This document shows positions 16,242-60,336 of a stretch of 64,000 bases of DNA, in pieces. Below the pieces are notes generated by a model that saw only the letters and a list, made by a program, of their open reading frames with translations, did not search any database and had not been told where the DNA came from. Positions within the stretch are counted from its first letter, which is position 1, and each line of letters begins with the position of its first letter. The stretch is taken from assembly GCA_947475165.1 (NCBI GenBank), contig CANJLD010000007.1:83131-147130 (forward strand). The letters are read 5' to 3'. The stretch comes from Bacteroidota bacterium. GTDB lineage: Bacteria > Bacteroidota > Bacteroidia > Chitinophagales > LD1. The translations under genes and the position numbers were made by a program.

Positions 16242-16874
16242 ATGAAGATTAAAACGGCTGAATACACAGCAAGTTATGTAGATGTAGAAAAATGCCCTAA
16301 ACCTGAGGTGCCGGAGTTTGCTTTTATCGGTCGCTCGAACGTGGGTAAGAGTTCGCTCATTAATTATCTTACGGGAAGGACTAAACTTTCGAAGGTTTCA
16401 AAAACACCCGGTAAAACACAAACCATCAATTACTTCGATATAAACTGCAATATCAATTTTGTCGATTTGCCGGGTTACAGTTTTGCCAAGGTTTCTATTG
16501 AAATGCGGAATAAATGGAACAATATGATTCGCAACTATATTCTGCATCGCGAGCAGTTATTGTATGTGTTCCAATTGATTGACTCGCGCGTGCCGCCACA
16601 AAAAATTGACTTGGAATTTATAGGCTGGATGGGCAAGAACCATGTGCCTTTGGTGGTGGTTTTTACTAAGGCGGACAAGCCGGGTAACCGAGAAGCCACT
16701 TCCAATATTCAGGCATTTAAAAATGCCCTGCTGAAAGAGTGGGAAGAATTGCCGGTGATATTTGTTACTTCATCAGAAAAAAAGGTGGGCGGAGAAGGAG
16801 TCTTGAGCTTTATAGAACAGGCGGCAAGAAGCTATTATACACAGAAAAACAAGAATGAAAACACGGAATCTTGA
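16242..16874 (+). CDS. engB: Ribosome-biogenesis GTPase YsxC/EngB
   Basis: 210 aa with G1 GRSNVGKSSLIN, G3 DLPGY and G4 TKADK. Confidence 0.9.
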   Translation: MKIKTAEYTASYVDVEKCPKPEVPEFAFIGRSNVGKSSLINYLTGRTKLSKVSKTPGKTQTINYFDINCNINFVDLPGYSFAKVSIEMRNKWNNMIRNYILHREQLLYVFQLIDSRVPPQKIDLEFIGWMGKNHVPLVVVFTKADKPGNREATSNIQAFKNALLKEWEELPVIFVTSSEKKVGGEGVLSFIEQAARSYYTQKNKNENTES

Positions 16875-33875: not shown

Positions 33876-36800
33876 TTAGCGTATCAGTGTAATAGTTGCT
33901 GCTTTAAAAAAATCTTTTTCCTGCGTCTTAACACGCACTATGCAACTGTATACTCCCATATCACAATCCTTTCCATTAAATGTTCCATCCCAAGGATGCC
34001 CAACATTGTTAGTTTCAAAAACCTTCTGTCCCCAGCGATTGTAGATTTGCATATTGAAACTTATATACGGAAAGCCAATTACAATATTGTAATCACTATT
34101 CTCGGAATGGTTATAGTTATAATTTGATGAACAGAAGAATACGTTAGGAATACCTATTGTGCCTAATGTATCTGTGATTGGTTCCTTTTCTTTAAACCAT
34201 GCAATCACCGTATCGGGTTGCTGAACCTGAATGAACACAATAGGAGTGGTGCTGTTAGGAATTGGTGAGTGATAAATAAAATCGTAATGGTCAAATACAT
34301 AGTTGTAAGTATGGTTGGTAGTAGTTACTACATTTCCGCTTGCATCAAAATCAAGATTGGTTCCTTCTTCAAATCTGCCTTTCCATGGATAGCCGGATGG
34401 AGTGATTCCACCAACAATTATTTTTCCTGCAAAATGATTTGGCGCAACATCCACTACAATATCAAACGAATCAAGCGGAATTAAACTGAACTCTGCCGTA
34501 AGTGTATCGTCCTGCGTAATAGTAAAGTTGGCAGTAGCCGAAGAGTTGTTTGGCGTAAGTGTATGATAAAGCAATGTCCAGTTAGTGAAAGAGTAACCGG
34601 TGTTTGCTGCAGACGAAATATTGATAAGCGTTCCATCATTAAACTGCAGCGTAACCGGATACGATGGAGGTGTTGTTCCATTTACCGTAGCGTTTCCGCT
34701 ACCGGTTGGGTTTATCATTACCGTCAAATTGCGGATTATAGGATTTACGGTAAAGTTGGCAACTAAGGTATCATCTACGGTTATATTAAAGTTGGCATTA
34801 GCCGAAGAGTTATTTGGCATAAGCGTATGATTCAGTAAAGTCCAGTTGGCAAATGTGTAACCACCATTTTGCGTAGCAATAATGTTTAGCGGTGTGCCAT
34901 CTACAAATTGCATTACTGCAGGATACGCCCCCGGTGTAGTGCCATTCACACTTACGTTTCCGCCACCAGCAGGGTTAACTAATACAGTTAGGTTAAAAGT
35001 ATCGGGACTTGGAATTAGAGTGAAGTTGGCAATCAGTGTATCGTTTGCAGTAATGTTGAAGTTAGCGTTAGCAGAAGTATTATTCGGAGTAAGCGTATGA
35101 TGAAGAATTGTCCAGTTAGCAAAGGTGTAACCACCGTTTTGTGTGGCAATAATGTTTAGCGGAGTGCCATCTACAAATTGTAATACTGCCGGATATGCGC
35201 CCGGTGTAGTGCCATTCACACTTACGTTTCCGCTACCAGCAGGGTTAACTAATACGGTTAGGTTAAAAGTATCAGGACTTGGAATTAGAGTGAAGTTGGC
35301 AATCAGTGTATCGTTAGCTGTAATGTTGAAGTTAGCGTTAGCTGAAGTATTATTCGGAGTAAGCGCGTGGTGTAAAATTGTCCAGTTAGCAAAGGTGTAA
35401 CCACCGTTTTGTGTGGCAATAATGTTTAGCGGAGTGCCATCTACAAATTGTAATACTGCCGGATATGCTCCCGGTGTAGTTCCGTTTACGCTTACATTTC
35501 CTCCACCGGCAGGGTTAACTAATACGGTTAAGTTAAATGTATCTGGTATTACGGTAAAGTTGGCAATGAGGGTATCGTTGGCGGTAATAGTAAAATTGGC
35601 ATTAGCCGAAGTATTGTTTGGTGTAAGCGCATGATGCAGAATTGTCCAGTTAGCAAAAGCGTAACCGGTGTTAGCAGTGGCTATTACATTTACAGGAGTT
35701 CCGTCAACAAATTGAATTACTGCCGGATATGCACCTGGTGTGGTTCCGTTTACGCTTACGTTTCCGCCACCGGCAGGGTTTACCAGTACCGTTAAGTTAA
35801 ACGTATCGGGATTTACTGTGTAATTAGCTACAAGAGTATCGTCTTGTGTAATGGTGAAACTTACGTTTGCCGAAGTGTTATTCGGATTTAAAGCATGATG
35901 CAACAGAAACCAGTTAGCAAAAGTGTAACCGGTGTTCGCAGTTTCGGAAATAGTTAATGCGGTGTTGATTGGAAAGCGCATTACTGTTGGGTACAATGCC
36001 GGGGTAACTCCGTTCACTGTAATGTTTCCGGCACCTACCGGGTTTACATACACGGTTAAATCAACTGAATCTGAAGGAACAAAAACTGCTACTACAGAAT
36101 CGGGTGTGGTTCCCATATCAAAATACATACTGTCAACGGTGGTAGATGGCAGTGCCGTGTGGCTTATAGTTTGCCAGTGCGAAAACACATAACCTGTATC
36201 TGCATTTGCTTTAAACGTAACGTTTATTCCTCCAAAATAATTAGAAGTGTAAACGTAATTGGTTGGTGTAATAGTGTTGCCGATAGTAACCGTGCCGGCA
36301 CCGACAGGATAAACATCTACTGCTAAATGATAAGGACCTGATACCTGATAACAGGTATCAAATGCAGTAGTAAAAAATGCACAGCGGCCGGAAATCTGAT
36401 TACGCAGATACTGCACATTGTTTTGCCATGTGGTATAGCTTCCGCTCCATCTGGTGCATTGTCTTTGCATTTCGGGCTGAATACGCGCCACCATACTATC
36501 TAAGTGATTCAGCATATTGGTGCAGTTGAATGCACCGTTCAAATGTTCCGCCATCCGGTTAACGTACAGGGCTTCAAATGCTGGGTTGGTCATCAGTTTA
36601 TTGAAGATGACAATATGCCCTTGTTGGGAGCCAATGTTCGGGTTACTGTATTGCCCTCCGGCAGCATTGTTAATATCGCAAGGGCTCGCGTTGTTTGTCG
36701 TATTACCCCAGCCGGTATAATCCTGACCGAGATTGAATGTGTTGTCTGTATCCCATAGATAGTATTTCCATTTTATATTGTTTGGCTGTTTACGTCCGCG

Positions 36801-38303
36801 CCACCAGGCTGTGTTATAGTTCAGCCAGTCGCTGTTAACGGTGTAAAGCCCTTCCGCAATCATATCAATCAAACTCATGGCATCTAACCGGTCAACCACA
36901 TGCTGATAATTGGCGGGAACCGTAAGATTATTTGCCACCACAAAATTGTAAAGATTGTTCCACGCAGTATCGCTGCCGTTAATAATCTGCAAGCTACCCC
37001 AGTAGCGTAAATGGTCAACGTCTTCTTCTTGCTGGTCGTAGTAATAGTCAAAATAATCATCATCTACTTTTTCGCGGTATTCATACACGCCCCAATACTG
37101 ACCGTTCACAAAAACAATGCAATGGTCACCTCTGCGGGTATCTAAGTTCAGTCCGAATTTTTCGGCCAGCGATTGATTGTAAATATCGCGGATGTGCGCA
37201 CAGCGCGAAGGAGGATTAGAGCCGCCATCGGGAAAGTTATCAGACGCACCGGCTTTAAATATCAGCCACTTAAACTTCTTGCGTGGCGATGTGTAAAACA
37301 TTTTCTTGTTAATCAAATCACCGGTGCCGTATTGGTCTTCTACATCAAAATCGAAACCTTTTTGTGAGTATGCCCAGGAGTCGTTTCCGTGCGGGCTGAA
37401 CTCTCCGCCAATTTCAAACACCTGCTGATTGCCCGAAGAGAAAAACTCCAGATTGCCGAAACGCAGATTCAAATTGCCATTGGCTAATTCTGTATTAAGC
37501 GAACCGGAGGTAACAGAAACTACCGGAAGGGTATGTGTTTCGTTAATGAAATAAGTATTGGTTTCGGTAAAGCTTGGAATGGTGGCGTTGGTATTGTCGA
37601 AAGCTCTTGCCCTTATTACCGTTGTGGCACTTACTGCAATAGCTGCCGAATAAAGAGTAGATGCAGTAGTGGGAGTAGCACCGTTAGTAGTATACCGGAT
37701 AGTAGTATTTGCCTGCGAACACGAAAGCGTTACAGACTGCGCGCCCGAATAAAAACCGGCAGGCAAATTGAACTGCACTTTAGGAACGTAAGAAGGATAA
37801 GGTGTTTGTGTATTGTTAGAAGCATTAGGCGTTGCCTTGGTAAAAATGCTCCACGTTGCTGCACCATTGGTGGTTCTTCCTCGGCTGTCGTTACTATCGC
37901 AAGGGAAAATGGTGAGCGAATCAATAATAGTAAGCGCAGGGTTAGTTAAAATAATATGCTCCGAAGTATCGCTTTGGGTTAATTTAAAGTTGGTGTGCTG
38001 CTGTCCGCTTATTACTCCGTTTTTTGCCGAGCAGAAAAATATACGGTAACTGTTGTTGGCCATATTAATGCCGGTTGGTATCTGCCACTTGTTCAGCGAA
38101 TCAGGAGTATCACTTAAAAACCAGCCGCCTATGTTTACCGCAGCACCGGAACCGTTGTAGAGTTCTATCCAGTCATAATACTTACCGTTAGCAGCAGCGT
38201 AACTGGATTTGTTAGCAGCCGAAAACTCGTTGATAACAATTTGTGCCTGACTATATTGGCAGAGTGCGAAAAGGAGGAGAACCGTAGTGTAAATTCTTTG
38301 CAT
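33876..38303 (-). CDS. Lamin-tail-domain / CotH-like protein with about 8 tandem beta-sandwich repeats and a T9SS type-B C-terminal sorting domain
   Basis: 1475 aa with a signal peptide. The LTD signature is VINEFSAANK...YDWIELYN. The central region is CotH-like. Eight repeats of about 88-90 aa have the form NPAGGGNVSVNGTTPGAYP...GYTFANWT. The C-terminus IYNRWGQKVFE...WDGTFNGKDCDMGVYSC fits the gliding-motility C-terminal domain. Confidence 0.8.
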   Translation of the reverse strand: MQRIYTTVLLLFALCQYSQAQIVINEFSAANKSSYAAANGKYYDWIELYNGSGAAVNIGGWFLSDTPDSLNKWQIPTGINMANNSYRIFFCSAKNGVISGQQHTNFKLTQSDTSEHIILTNPALTIIDSLTIFPCDSNDSRGRTTNGAATWSIFTKATPNASNNTQTPYPSYVPKVQFNLPAGFYSGAQSVTLSCSQANTTIRYTTNGATPTTASTLYSAAIAVSATTVIRARAFDNTNATIPSFTETNTYFINETHTLPVVSVTSGSLNTELANGNLNLRFGNLEFFSSGNQQVFEIGGEFSPHGNDSWAYSQKGFDFDVEDQYGTGDLINKKMFYTSPRKKFKWLIFKAGASDNFPDGGSNPPSRCAHIRDIYNQSLAEKFGLNLDTRRGDHCIVFVNGQYWGVYEYREKVDDDYFDYYYDQQEEDVDHLRYWGSLQIINGSDTAWNNLYNFVVANNLTVPANYQHVVDRLDAMSLIDMIAEGLYTVNSDWLNYNTAWWRGRKQPNNIKWKYYLWDTDNTFNLGQDYTGWGNTTNNASPCDINNAAGGQYSNPNIGSQQGHIVIFNKLMTNPAFEALYVNRMAEHLNGAFNCTNMLNHLDSMVARIQPEMQRQCTRWSGSYTTWQNNVQYLRNQISGRCAFFTTAFDTCYQVSGPYHLAVDVYPVGAGTVTIGNTITPTNYVYTSNYFGGINVTFKANADTGYVFSHWQTISHTALPSTTVDSMYFDMGTTPDSVVAVFVPSDSVDLTVYVNPVGAGNITVNGVTPALYPTVMRFPINTALTISETANTGYTFANWFLLHHALNPNNTSANVSFTITQDDTLVANYTVNPDTFNLTVLVNPAGGGNVSVNGTTPGAYPAVIQFVDGTPVNVIATANTGYAFANWTILHHALTPNNTSANANFTITANDTLIANFTVIPDTFNLTVLVNPAGGGNVSVNGTTPGAYPAVLQFVDGTPLNIIATQNGGYTFANWTILHHALTPNNTSANANFNITANDTLIANFTLIPSPDTFNLTVLVNPAGSGNVSVNGTTPGAYPAVLQFVDGTPLNIIATQNGGYTFANWTILHHTLTPNNTSANANFNITANDTLIANFTLIPSPDTFNLTVLVNPAGGGNVSVNGTTPGAYPAVMQFVDGTPLNIIATQNGGYTFANWTLLNHTLMPNNSSANANFNITVDDTLVANFTVNPIIRNLTVMINPTGSGNATVNGTTPPSYPVTLQFNDGTLINISSAANTGYSFTNWTLLYHTLTPNNSSATANFTITQDDTLTAEFSLIPLDSFDIVVDVAPNHFAGKIIVGGITPSGYPWKGRFEEGTNLDFDASGNVVTTTNHTYNYVFDHYDFIYHSPIPNSTTPIVFIQVQQPDTVIAWFKEKEPITDTLGTIGIPNVFFCSSNYNYNHSENSDYNIVIGFPYISFNMQIYNRWGQKVFETNNVGHPWDGTFNGKDCDMGVYSCIVRVKTQEKDFFKAATITLIR
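34190..36335 (-). repeat. In-frame tandem repeats of 264-270 bp inside the CotH-like gene
   Basis: There are eight domain copies. The central four (about 34740-35801) are near-identical at the DNA level, with the same 20-40-nt strings recurring at a 270-bp spacing (for example at 34880, 35150 and 35420). Confidence 0.85.
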
Positions 38304-38462: not shown

Positions 38463-39179
38463 TCAGGCAATCACCATCACCTTTACCGCACTCCACGGGC
38501 CGGCAAGCAAAGGATGTTTGGTGTTATACCATCGCGCAAATACCACTAACCGTTTACACACATTATCGGCATCGCAATTTTTAATGAACTGAGCTTTAGT
38601 AAATATTTCGCGTTGCATACCGGTGCTTTCTGCATGAAGAGCAGCAACATTGCTGACAGCATCAACAATCATAAATGACAGTTGAACACTATCGGCACCG
38701 GTGGCTTTGCTGGCGCGGTTATTATCGTGACCGGTGCGGCAACTGAACTTAAACTCGCCACCGCCAAGGGGTTTGGCATCAAACACTACCGCATCGGCAA
38801 TAGCAGTGTTGTGGCGGGTAGGCTTTTTTCTTCCGGTTTTGAAATTATAGATGGCTTCATCGGCAGTATTTGCGTTTTTATTGCTTGCTATAATGTTGAG
38901 CAACGGCATAGCAAAGGTTCTGAAATCAGTAATAAAATTCTGCACCTGTGCCTTTACTGCGCTGGTGCTTTGCAGCGGGTCGGAATATTTAGGGTAAAGA
39001 GTGTCTTTCCAAAACAACCGTTTGCTCTGCCACTCGTTTGCCTCGGTAACCGAAAGCCCCAGCCGCTGCCAGTTAGGGTTACCCGATACGGGGTCGTTTT
39101 GTTGCAGATGGATATCGGTAGTATTAATGTAATTGTTGAAGAGAGGAATTTGCTTTGAAATTCGGCTTTTATCTGACAT
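38463..39179 (-). CDS. Hypothetical cytoplasmic protein (no recognisable motif)
   Basis: 238-aa ORF with no signal peptide or TM segment. I could not assign a family. It stands alone, flanked by a 160-bp spacer and a 340-bp spacer. Confidence 0.5.
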   Translation of the reverse strand: MSDKSRISKQIPLFNNYINTTDIHLQQNDPVSGNPNWQRLGLSVTEANEWQSKRLFWKDTLYPKYSDPLQSTSAVKAQVQNFITDFRTFAMPLLNIIASNKNANTADEAIYNFKTGRKKPTRHNTAIADAVVFDAKPLGGGEFKFSCRTGHDNNRASKATGADSVQLSFMIVDAVSNVAALHAESTGMQREIFTKAQFIKNCDADNVCKRLVVFARWYNTKHPLLAGPWSAVKVMVIA

Positions 39180-39264
39180 TAAGATTAGGTTTATTGTATA
39201 AAATAATGATTTTTTAATAAAAAATGCAAGTTTTTAAGGTTTTTTAAAGCCTAAGGAACTTAGA

Positions 39265-39432
39265 AGTGCGAACTCTTAAGTTAGAAGTATTAACTTTCAA
39301 TTTTAAAGTTCGAACTTTAAAAATAAGAGTATGAACTTTTGTTTTAAAAGTAAGAACTTCTAAGTTAAGAGTAAGAACTTCTAAGTTAAGAGTAAGAACT
39401 TTTAACTTAAAAGTAAGGACTTTTAACTTAAA
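39265..39432. repeat. Eight head-to-tail 21-bp repeats (consensus AGTAAGAACTTCTAAGTTAAG)
   Basis: Units start at 39265, 39286, 39307, 39328, 39349, 39370, 39391 and 39412. Units 5 and 6 are identical. Weaker degenerate units flank the array, from about 39223 to about 39445. Confidence 0.9.
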
Positions 39433-39522
39433 AATCCTTACTTCTAAGTCTCTGCCTAATGGCAGAAAGCCAAAAACTCTTGCTGTAAAATTTATAAAAA
39501 TGGATGATTTCAGGAAATATTT

Positions 39523-40548
39523 TTACAGAAATTTTTCGAGGCTTTTCCGCTCCTCATCAAACACAAGCGCGAACTCTTTTTCCAGTTTCGCTAACTTCTC
39601 TAAATTCTTCCGCACAAATTTTTTGTGTGCTTCGGAGGTTGGATTGCGCGGCTTGTGGCGCGCGGCAAGCAGCAGCTCATCCATATCGCGCATCAGCAAA
39701 ATGGTTTTGGGCTCAAGCATGGCATCGCAAAGTTTCTGCCACACATAATCGGTTGCCTGATAATTGGGATGCAGCATATCTTCTGCAAAAAAGCGATAGT
39801 CACGCAGGTCGTCCATCACTAATTCATAGGCAGGGAAATAAAAATAAGCAATGTCCCGTTCCTTCAATTCATGAATAGCCGAAAACAAATGCGCCTTGCT
39901 CACCGTGTTTTCGTGGTGGCCGAAAGCGAAGTAACGGACCGGGCTAACTGTGAGAACGATTTTTAGTTGAGGGTAGACAGTTGACAGTTTATTAAGAGTA
40001 CCGCCTAGAGTAAGAAAAATCTCCTCCGGTGACAGCAATAGCTTTACAAAGTGATTGCCGGAGAGTTTATGGCAGTTGGATACTAACCGCGTTCCTTTCA
40101 CATTTCCCCACTCCTTCACGCCTTCCGGGAGAGATTCATTTTTTAACTCAAACACATGGCTTGTTCCGAAAGTCAAAAATAAAACCGTAGCATTCTTCAA
40201 ATCTTCACTTGCCTGCAACAGGTTTTCGTTAATTACTTGTAAAGTTTCGGTAACTGTGCTGCGCGAAAAACTGCCGTGGTGGTCGAACGAATGATAAAGC
40301 TCATCGTGATACACCAAATCTTTTTCGGTGTAAAGCACCGGTTCCAACAAACGCTCAATAGCTGCGGCAATAGAATGCGGATTATATTGCTGCCCGAAAG
40401 GGTTCACGTTGATGTTGAACTTATACTCGCCAAATTTCTTACCAATGTTTTCTGAAAAACACGAACCTATACTCACCAGCTTATCGCGGTGCGAAATCAG
40501 GAACGGAGATTTTTCGGGAGTAACAACAGTGCGGAACGGCTTCATCAA
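39523..40548 (-). CDS. GSCFA-domain protein
   Basis: 341 aa carrying the family's name-giving motif, IGSCFSENIG, near the N-terminus. Confidence 0.8.
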   Translation of the reverse strand: MMKPFRTVVTPEKSPFLISHRDKLVSIGSCFSENIGKKFGEYKFNINVNPFGQQYNPHSIAAAIERLLEPVLYTEKDLVYHDELYHSFDHHGSFSRSTVTETLQVINENLLQASEDLKNATVLFLTFGTSHVFELKNESLPEGVKEWGNVKGTRLVSNCHKLSGNHFVKLLLSPEEIFLTLGGTLNKLSTVYPQLKIVLTVSPVRYFAFGHHENTVSKAHLFSAIHELKERDIAYFYFPAYELVMDDLRDYRFFAEDMLHPNYQATDYVWQKLCDAMLEPKTILLMRDMDELLLAARHKPRNPTSEAHKKFVRKNLEKLAKLEKEFALVFDEERKSLEKFL

Positions 40549-58943: not shown

Positions 58944-59141
58944 TTAAGCCAATCCAAGCATCAGTTTTACTCTGTGCTCATCGCTTTTGTGAACTACGGT
59001 TGACTTAGCAAGTTCTTCTTTTCTTTTCTTGCTTTTGCTGCCCAGCAAGTGACGCTTATACGCCTTGCCGCGCTTTATTTTACCCGAGCCGGTTACTTTG
59101 AAACGCTTCTTAGCTCCGGAATTTGTTTTCATTTTAGGCAT
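58944..59141 (-). CDS. rpmI: 50S ribosomal protein L35
   Basis: 65 aa: [24 protein letters not shown]...HLL. Confidence 0.95.
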
Positions 59142-59194: not shown

Positions 59195-59580
59195 TCGTTT
59201 TTAGATAGTAGTAAACTACAGGTTATGGATAGCGAAGCAGGTCGCTTGGGGATAAATGATTGGTACGCAAAAGACATAAATAAGGTTCGGAACAGGCAAT
59301 GCTTTATTACTGTATAAAGCGAAAAGCGTATTCCGATAAACTGTTTGCCCGATAGCAGGCAGAAACAGCAGATTTCGAAGAACTATCCGCTGTTTCTGAA
59401 AATACAAATTTAGCTATCGCAGGTATAAAATCTGCATCGGGTGCAACAACTGTAACCCAAAGTGCTAAGAATGTAACTTTCGAAGACACGTCTTTAACCT
59501 CTTCTGCTAATTTTGATATAAGGGTTAGTGTAAAGCCTCTGAGGTCTGTCATTTAGGAATAGCCGGAAGCGGGAAATGTG

Positions 59581-59840
59581 CTCTGGGATATAACCGGTGC
59601 TGTTACGGTCATAACCGCCCATTTTACAGCCATAACTTCCTATGTTACGCCCGTAACTGCCACTGTTACGGTTATAACTTCCCAAGTTACGCTCGTAACA
59701 GCCTAGGTTACGCTCGTAACTGCCCTGGTTACAAATGGCTTTTCCCAAAGAACAAATGCTTCTTCCCACACAGTTTTCTTTGTTTCCTAATGTGCTTTTA
59801 TGGCTTCCGTGAGAACTTTCTTGTCTTCCACCTGGGCTTT
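59581..59840. repeat. 21-nt-phased repeat array with palindromic core GTTACG-NN-CGTAAC
   Basis: GTTAC (or TTTAC) recurs at 59602, 59623, 59644, 59665, 59686, 59707 and 59728. A TTCC/TGCC element stays in the same 21-nt phase out to 59826 (59637, 59679, 59742, 59763, 59784, 59805, 59826). Confidence 0.85.
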
Positions 59841-59919: not shown

Positions 59920-60336
59920 ATGATTTCAAACACCTTAAAGTATGCGACTAAAGTATGGTTGACGAGTGTTTTACTTTCACCGTTTGTCTTCCTGTTGTTT
60001 ATGGGGACTGTTGACGCACAAAAATTGCAGACAGAAGCTATTGGTACGGGCGGCTTTGTCTTCTTTTCCCTTCTTTTTGGTTTTGTTTTATCAATTCCAA
60101 ATTGGATAGTCTTTGTTTTTGTTACAAGGTTCATAAACAGAAAATTTTCTGCTCACCCGCAAAAGAAACTGCCCCTTGCAATAGCAGGGATGATGCTTAC
60201 TTACATTTTGTTTGCTCTTGTATTTTTTAGCGATGGGGTTAGAGGACAACAAATTTTTCATTTGCTACTGTTAACGGCTTATTGCTCTACTATAGGAGCG
60301 GGAGCAGTTCTCTATAAATTAAAGCCTGATGAATGA
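59920..60336 (+). CDS. Small integral membrane protein (4 predicted TM helices)
   Basis: 138-aa hydrophobic ORF with no recognisable motif. Confidence 0.4.
   Translation: MISNTLKYATKVWLTSVLLSPFVFLLFMGTVDAQKLQTEAIGTGGFVFFSLLFGFVLSIPNWIVFVFVTRFINRKFSAHPQKKLPLAIAGMMLTYILFALVFFSDGVRGQQIFHLLLLTAYCSTIGAGAVLYKLKPDE

Follow-up and report, generated by a model that had tools for sequence, protein, structure and literature searches.

A strictly phased tandem array of 21-bp units was characterized in a stretch of 64,000 nucleotides from a Bacteroidota bacterium (contig CANJLD010000007.1; this whole stretch is hereafter the window), where it occupies most of the spacer upstream of a gene for a protein of 238 amino acids (aa). 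The gene belongs to an unnamed family of about 235 aa, labelled FAM238 here, and arrays of the same period and unit design, with unrelated sequences, accompany FAM238 genes in distant orders of Bacteroidota. The array is best taken as a control element for protein docking, of a kind not yet described; junk DNA and a plasmid origin are less likely. The reading that we favour, with confidence evenly balanced, is a phased operator, or upstream-activating array, at which a dimeric DNA-binding protein would control the FAM238 promoter or an operon of a regulator and FAM238. Protein binding, its cooperativity and an effect on transcription would be in keeping with what was observed directly, that is, the linkage of array and gene, the common geometry, the concerted evolution of units, the polymorphism in copy number and the one-component regulator gene found in many of the modules.

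The eight well-kept units of the core start at positions 39265, 39286, 39307, 39328, 39349, 39370, 39391 and 39412, and all read exactly as given in an earlier annotation of this DNA (the original prediction). The spacing was strictly 21 bp upon repeat search, and Tandem Repeats Finder (TRF) returned 39270-39431 with a period of 21, 7.7 copies, 77% matches and 0 insertions or deletions. The degenerate units predicted on both sides were found in phase, at 39223 and 39244 on the gene side and at 39433 on the far side, so that the array spans from about 39223 to about 39453 within the 343-bp spacer (39180-39522), itself confirmed, between the stop codon of the GSCFA gene and the start of the FAM238 open reading frame (ORF). 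The 21-mer consensus with up to 3 mismatches matched 5 sites in the 64-kb window, all in the array (0.01 expected), and self-identity at lag 21 reached at least 0.6 at two places of the window only, 39246-39491 and a second array at 59.6 kb. The possibility raised at the outset, that of a satellite scattered without regard to genes, does not hold, since all consensus matches in the 64 kb are inside the array.

The columns best kept among units are AGT (1-3) and AACTT (7-11), and for this reason the best-kept dyad on the gene strand is AAAAGT-N4-ACTTTT; the originally described dyad AACTT-CT-AAGTT is present, but is not the better kept of the two. Since the unit is a tandem palindrome, each period has two dyad axes. 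Variation within the unit is greatest at the four central bases. At the distal end, the 7-bp stem GTAAGGA/TCCTTAC noted before is real, and belongs to an inverted repeat of greater length, whose 22-nt arms are 91% complementary (39405-39426 and 39428-39449); this repeat arises because the most distal unit is inverted (minus-strand consensus match at 39422-39442).

The association with the gene family was examined in 32 genome loci, 80 metagenome loci and several contigs from exact protein look-up, using TRF and lag-autocorrelation for array detection and 95 non-identical homologous loci for the counts. Period-21 arrays were detected upstream of the FAM238 homologue in most loci with enough upstream DNA. 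The 2.2-kb upstream zones (163 kb over the 95 loci) contained 50 arrays of at least 4 copies, 45 of them with a period of exactly 21, while the remaining 295 kb of the same loci contained 1 period-21 array, indicating an enrichment of about 80-fold upstream of FAM238 across distant orders. The copy number was 8.2 as the median and ranged from 2.9 to 19.7. The 238-aa ORF, once taken as an unassignable orphan, is a member of a large conserved family, and the proposed arrangement, a phased array tied to this ORF and placed just upstream of its promoter site, recurred in dozens of distant homologous loci. A mere 3' untranslated region of the GSCFA gene is argued against because in other genomes it is FAM238, and not GSCFA, that the array accompanies.

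Unit sequences are unrelated between loci once FAM238 identity is below about 70-75%; examples of unit classes are CTGAC-AAGC-GTCAG, AAGCC-GCGT-GGCTT, CTGCC-ATAT-GGCAG, CTGCT-TAAG-AGCAG, AAGCTAGCTT, AAAGTACTTT and ACTGTT-N5-AACAGT. Palindromy of consensus units exceeded that of shuffles (mean best arm 4.64 vs 3.60 bp, P<5e-5). In 24 classes of unrelated units, among them the second array of the window, complementarity was 0.83 at +/-2.5 and +/-3.5 bp from the dyad axis and about 0.5 in the central four positions, with 0.25 expected by chance. This profile indicates a common plan, in which an arm of 4-6 bp, a free N4, the second arm and a linker of about 7 bp add up to 21 bp. A fixed period of two helical turns has meaning for duplex DNA, but none for hairpins of RNA or single-stranded DNA.

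The free central 4 nt and the covarying arms are hairpin-like in appearance, and the array might be transcribed as a FAM238 leader or a small RNA, with tandem mini-hairpins (5-6-bp stem, 4-nt loop) for protein binding or for control of translation or stability. The predicted RNA fold of the array is indeed very stable (z = -8.2), as is that of any palindromic array, and in one clade the spacer GUAGAAAUAGA is kept while the arms change. Such an RNA element is quite improbable, however, as it leaves the strict 21-nt period unexplained. Mirrored positions carry 110 G:T mismatches vs 106 A:C, and thus give no sign that wobble pairs are tolerated on one strand; many units are perfect 10-bp palindromes, useless as lone hairpins; no Rfam family was matched at its gathering score; and consistency of open frame or strand was lacking.

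Copy-number variation of the orthologous spacer, which had been suggested as a check, was detected as one unit gained or lost between strains. Where the FAM238 protein is identical, the difference is of exactly one unit (loci L003 and L005 vs the window and L004; also a contig of run X1); the unit that is missing from other strains and samples belongs to the identical pair 39349/39370. Larger divergence was found between the window and L001, which belong to one species: the flanks are 99-100% identical, the array 67-77%, the promoter region 81% and the 5' half of FAM238 70-89%, and identity is back to 99% by the gene end. The divergent allele block thus starts exactly at the distal edge of the array and covers the array plus the N-terminal half of FAM238. 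Between the FAM238 genes of the window (38463-39179) and L001 (4001-4717), the synonymous divergence (dS) falls from 0.94 in codons 1-72, at a ratio of nonsynonymous to synonymous divergence (dN/dS) of 0.15, to 0.31 and then 0.12, with dN/dS of 0.15-0.26. Within the array the AGT-N4-ACT arms were kept, substitutions were concerted across units, and conservation was better than that of the synonymous sites of adjacent codons (synonymous difference pS 0.53). The alignment suggests that the block is made of old, purified alleles, or was imported from a diverged lineage, and has not arisen by decay. In related arrays of other loci, a symmetric double substitution from AAAGTACTTT to AATGTACATT has been fixed in all units, indicating that dyad symmetry is maintained.

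Gain and loss of units and their concerted evolution are also what may be expected of a selfish or neutral repeat without function, either slippage-prone or of the type of repetitive extragenic palindromes (REP) and bacterial interspersed mosaic elements (BIME), perhaps seeded by Y1 transposases resembling REP-associated tyrosine transposases (RAYT). RAYT-like genes are located at the array position in 9 loci, other palindromic arrays surround such a gene in L029 and L037, and quasipalindrome correction could yield symmetric changes without selection. A repeat of this kind should not be enriched about 80-fold at one gene family in distant orders, with unrelated sequences of constant period and dyad geometry; moreover, the window has no dispersed copies, and its array is more conserved than neighbouring synonymous sites. 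We consider this origin improbable. The likeness to REP/BIME with RAYT goes as far as short palindromic units in clusters, RAYT-like genes in the array position and REP-like arrays around one of them. REPs differ in being dispersed, many per genome and not strictly phased, whereas the window unit was found only in the array upon search of 64 kb, the linkage here is to FAM238 and not to a transposase, and no Y1 transposase was detected in the window by tblastn.

The modules were classified by the gene between array and FAM238. Type 1 loci, with no regulator gene in this position, are the window, L001, L009-L017, L022, L038, L041-L047 and L125-L127, and their arrays end 69-246 bp before the FAM238 start. 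In a LytTR type (41 loci), the array is followed by a same-strand LytTR gene (PF04397) and then by FAM238; the LytTR proteins have a predicted membrane N-terminal region, and the array ends mostly about 30-160 bp before the regulator start. In a LuxR type (27 loci), array and FAM238 are separated by a PAS-like LuxR gene of opposite orientation, and the array is located just past the LuxR stop codon, 1.0-1.5 kb from FAM238. AraC/GyrI-like and Crp-like regulators fill the slot in a few loci, and most Bacteroidales-type loci carry a regulator there. Apart from the regulators and FAM238, no conserved neighbour was found in 110 loci. In one clade the arrays of LytTR and LuxR type are homologous, left flank included, and have the same orientation to FAM238, indicating that the regulator cassette was swapped while the array stayed. 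In one clade, the array end is followed at about 50 nt by a Bacteroidota-like -7 box, with one perfect match and one-base-short versions in close relatives. Distant LytTR homologues of the same type without FAM238 had no upstream array, and a 37%-identical LytTR homologue with FAM238 had a short one.

In all these types the array is at the far edge of the module, whatever the orientation of the regulator, lying before the start of LytTR, AraC and Crp genes and just after the 3' end of minus-strand LuxR genes. This position would suit a boundary or insulator that stops transcription to or from the neighbour, either as a protein roadblock or through the palindromes and the 22-bp terminal hairpin. 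The window array follows the co-directional GSCFA gene, has the near-perfect 22-bp hairpin at its distal end and the stable predicted fold given above, and the divergent allele block begins exactly at this edge. Termination by RNA hairpins, however, gives no reason for a strict 21-bp period, a search for an intrinsic-terminator-like site found none, mirrored positions show no excess of G:U over A:C (110 vs 106), and no array was seen at the opposite edge of the FAM238 module in the compared loci. An insulator is therefore unlikely, although it is the foremost of the rivals.

As a phased operator, the array would serve as a cis-acting docking platform of double-stranded DNA with about ten dyad sites two helical turns apart. 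Bound dimers would line up on one helix face immediately upstream of the FAM238 promoter, and their cooperative occupancy would switch or strongly tune FAM238 transcription; in related loci the array would act on the regulator-FAM238 operon, leading to feedback. Bacteroidota promoters have the consensus TTTG / TAnnTTTG, and by comparison with it a putative FAM238 promoter may be placed in the region 39198..39230. A search for single unit copies near promoters, as possible looping partners, found none, and none of the RNA runs searched for the array locus holds it.

The most plausible candidate for the binder in the window is an unlinked one-component regulator. Regulators of LytTR type may be the leading guess, by analogy, because direct repeats separated by 12 bp (about 21-bp phasing for repeats of about 9 bp) are their hallmark. 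LytTR repeats are about 9 bp long. By eye, the window unit holds TAAGTTAAG, a perfect match to the LytTR box [TA][AC][CA]GTTN[AG][TG]. This match may be coincidental, as the box is not enriched over shuffles: with up to 1 mismatch, the Firmicute consensus was found in 26% of 23 array classes vs 34% in shuffles. The similarity of arrays correlates about equally with the identity of LytTR, LuxR and FAM238, as results from common descent. The core TGCCGCATGGC recurs in loci with as well as without a LytTR gene, next to FAM238 proteins of about 45% identity in the N-domain.

Besides the missing enrichment of the LytTR box, several observations weigh against the phased operator. No DNA-binding gene is located between array and FAM238 in the window, nor in the other type 1 loci. 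The placement of LuxR-type arrays is odd for a promoter element. Neither LuxR nor FAM238 tracks the change from AAAGTACTTT to AATGTACATT, since the LuxR recognition helix is identical between the two classes of loci and the FAM238 proteins of L059 and L062 differ by one N-terminal and two C-domain residues, none of them class-specific. One metagenome-assembled genome (MAG) carries three FAM238 paralogues, of which two adjoin strong arrays that differ from each other and the third has a weak lag-21 signal at most, so that several trans factors would be needed.

FAM238 itself is the sole constant partner of the array, and in type 1 loci nothing else is linked. It could thus be the binder, for autoregulation or as a nucleoprotein platform, with the regulators as accessories. 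The lack of a common array among the three paralogues of one MAG, the within-species allele block made of the array and the N-terminal half of FAM238, and the single geometry whatever the regulator family agree with this proposal. It is nevertheless rather unlikely: no DNA-binding fold was recognised, the C-domain giving generic FN3 matches only and the N-domain being without a PDB neighbour at E<4; the isoelectric point (pI) of the family ranges from 5.4 to 10; the nearly identical proteins of L059 and L062 adjoin arrays with different palindromes; and, as described, the core TGCCGCATGGC was found with FAM238 proteins only about 45% identical in the N-domain. A wider reading, to which we give a small share of belief, is that the arrays are not ordinary operators for adjacent regulators, but the DNA half of a self-contained system present throughout Bacteroidota. 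A reader other than these regulators, or FAM238, would assemble on fast-changing phased dyads, act up to about 1.5 kb away and survive regulator swaps, the array being an enhancer-like, nucleation or epigenetic-sensor element kept in old divergent alleles.

Among known systems, LytTR promoters are closest to a phased operator of this kind. Operons of LytTR regulators autoactivate via direct repeats 12 bp apart just upstream of the -35 element, the repeat sequence being poorly conserved between orthologous systems (PMC6193735). Autoregulated LytTR promoters, such as P2/P3 of AgrA and those of the 'LytTR regulatory systems' HdrR/BrsR, exert positive feedback on their own operon (PMC6193735; PMC4227749). 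The arrays resemble these promoters in the spacing of the direct repeats, about 21 bp between centres, and in their place right before the promoter (in the window, a period of exactly 21 and an array end 66-84 bp before the ATG), in the poor conservation of the repeat sequence between orthologous systems and in the LytTR gene directly behind the array in 41 related loci. They differ in having 5-20 repeats, each with an internal dyad, instead of two; the window has no LytTR homologue upon tblastn search; arrays persist where LuxR replaces LytTR; the box consensus is not enriched here; and the LytTR proteins have the predicted membrane N-terminal region. Searches of the literature on 21-bp repeats in Bacteroidetes and on LytTR in Bacteroidetes found nothing describing the array arrangement.

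Helically phased tandem repeats, sometimes with an internal dyad, are bound cooperatively into a higher-order nucleoprotein complex at plasmid iterons and centromeres, for example the 22-bp iterons of R6K, the 12 x 43-bp sopC of F with its inverted repeats, and parC of R1/pSK41. The window array, with its 8-10 phased direct repeats of 21 bp with internal dyads, resembles these, and could be regarded as the replication iterons or partition centromere of an integrated or plasmid-like element. The locus is chromosomal, however, and is syntenic, with GSCFA and queA on one side and the gene for a protein of CotH type with a type IX secretion signal on the other; strains are 99-100% identical in its flanks. 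There is no gene of Rep, ParA or ParB type, the sole DnaA-box match of the window is at 16835, with none near the array and no obvious unwinding element, the fold of the partner protein is unrelated, and the FAM238 family is absent from IMG/VR contigs. Of the three roles first envisaged, cooperative repressor or activator array is still the best, and the iteron and centromere are essentially excluded for want of a Rep, Par or DnaA-box context. The rivals can be arranged, in falling order of probability, as insulator, FAM238 as binder, REP-like expansion, RNA leader, and iteron or centromere.

Repeats in promoters may also act as contingency loci, as do the ToxR-bound heptad repeats upstream of ctxAB. 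Here, too, strains differ in the number of repeats before a promoter, and expression could be tuned in this way. The difference from contingency loci is that gain or loss of a unit keeps the helical phase because units are 21 bp long, and no on/off switch of frame or spacing is implied.

If the array is a phased operator, an unnamed family of at least 850 clusters (50% identity) would gain a defining genomic signature, and a class of cis-elements would be known by geometry alone, namely the 21-bp period, the arm-N4-arm dyad and 5-20 copies, with sequence left free. This would offer a rule for finding regulatory targets in Bacteroidota, in which promoters and operators are poorly mapped, as well as a natural series of orthogonal operator arrays, and it would give the predicted-membrane LytTR and the PAS-LuxR one-component regulators one dedicated output gene in common. 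The allele block on the array and the FAM238 N-domain suggests that old alleles were kept or exchanged, making the module a candidate for a strain-specific or conflict-related function.

The FAM238 product has 79 word-indexed relatives, and profile search gave 850 clusters at 50% identity with E <=1e-3, including 522 with E <=1e-10. The best 150 clusters listed are mostly of 225-260 aa, and the named sources are all Bacteroidota MAGs (Chitinophagaceae, Paludibacter, Microbacter and Bacteroidales). As judged from these matches, FAM238 is a large, unnamed and Bacteroidota-only family. No match was obtained in Pfam, NCBIfam, PHROG or PADLOC, and no relatives were found in IMG/VR, which speaks against a phage origin. 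The AlphaFold model (predicted local distance difference test, pLDDT, of 88) combines an N-domain of helices (residues 11-111) with an FN3-like sandwich of seven strands (131-236). Foldseek with the whole protein gave generic FN3 matches only, from the C-domain; the N-domain modelled alone had no PDB neighbour with E<4, and is predicted to be a novel helical domain. The C-terminal motif RWYNTKHPELAGPWS of the family consensus is nearly invariant.

The features of the array locus and the second array are listed below.

Positions of the array, FAM238 and associated features in the window
Feature	Position	Strand	Remarks
Array core, eight units	39265..39432		plus-strand consensus AGTAAGAACTTYTAAGTTAAR; gene-strand dyad AAAAGT-N4-ACTTTT
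Two degenerate in-phase proximal units, running into putative FAM238 promoter	39223..39264	-	-33-like CTTGCAT at 39224-39230
Putative -7-like box TATTTTAT, imperfect TAnnTTTG	39198..39205	-	about 19 nt upstream of FAM238 ATG; inferred from consensus
Distal array end with inverted terminal unit	39405..39449		22-nt-arm inverted repeat including GTAAGGA/TCCTTAC
Solitary in-phase unit of other class, TTTCTGCCATTAGGCAGAG	39450..39468	-	CTGCC-N4-GGCAG; sole such site in 64 kb, 0.04 expected
FAM238 gene, 238 aa	38463..39179	-	conserved array partner; C-terminal motif RWYNTKHPLLAGPWS here, family consensus RWYNTKHPELAGPWS
Second array, GTTAC-N4-GTAAC, period 21, about 6-7 units	59601..59747		no FAM238 homologue adjacent

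The solitary unit next to the distal end agrees with the whole-array unit of the relative L127 at 16-17/21 positions, a likeness that points to a relic left by array turnover. The best bacterial match below the Rfam threshold was TD-2 RNA at 39356-39446 (28.9 bits vs a gathering score of 48.7, E 0.026), which is probably a by-product of the palindromic repeats; the other sub-threshold matches at the array were of generic hairpin and miRNA-precursor type. A coding repeat of 7 aa was considered and rejected: the frame is open and in phase with GSCFA but lacks a start codon, array-spanning ORFs of other loci occur on both strands (8 plus, 6 minus), and variation hits whole triplets and not third positions. 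In two cases (P0062 and P0197), gene callers had read such arrays as 7-aa-repeat N-terminal extensions. On the far side of the spacer, the 3' end of the GSCFA gene (39523-39570 in the window, about 3530-3629 in L001) shows a length difference of 42 bp (14 codons) between strains that are otherwise near-identical, the ORF being 341 aa in the window and 355 aa in L001 (340 vs 354 by gene callers).

Other repeats were noticed in the compared loci. In L037 (1-170), a 21-bp array is joined in frame to about codon 78 of a FAM238 homologue at the contig end; compared with L086, this fusion looks like either a deletion of about 1.6 kb, with loss of the LytTR gene and the FAM238 N-domain, or a break of the assembly within the repeat. 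Arrays of a palindromic motif, ACTCATCAGATGACT-gaa-AGTCATCAGATGAGT, surround the Y1 (RAYT-like) transposase gene in L029 (520-1975) and L037 (740-950). In L029 they fill the slot taken by the 21-bp array in other loci, and the motif is also present in frame inside the Y1 gene and inside an upstream ORF of unknown function; the arrays look like a REP/RAYT system with repeats that are tolerant of coding regions, the period being a multiple of 3. Direct repeats of 20 bp (2.4-3.8 copies) are located just downstream of LytTR genes in L093 (2341-2397), L035 (2560-2611), L121 (3647-3722) and L123 (3384-3431), with an ATCAC core in three of the four; they are upstream of the next gene in L093, L035 and L123, while L121 has no called downstream gene. 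They are candidates for classical LytTR binding sites and are not to be confused with the long arrays. Further short arrays, based on 7 bp (e.g. CAGTAAA) and with periods of 14, 21 or 28 bp, were found between the LytTR gene and FAM238, 190-400 bp upstream of the latter, in L079 (2064-2241), L092 (2057-2307) and L102 (2259-2306).

The second array of the window, predicted to be palindromic, of period 21 and unrelated in sequence, was confirmed at 59.6 kb, and has the arm-N4-arm geometry in common with the main array. It is located in an ORF-poor gap of 780 bp between rpmI (58944-59141, minus strand) and the gene for a 138-aa membrane protein (59920-60336, plus strand), and no homologue of FAM238, LytTR or LuxR was found near it. 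An 81-aa ORF beside it (59307-59552), for which no homologue other than itself was found, is probably not a gene. The CotH protein on the other side of FAM238 (33876-38303) is of 1475 aa, with CotH, lamin-tail and InlB-B-repeat regions and a CHU_C type IX secretion signal, and its gene contains about 4.5 tandem copies of a 270-bp coding repeat at 34741-35930.

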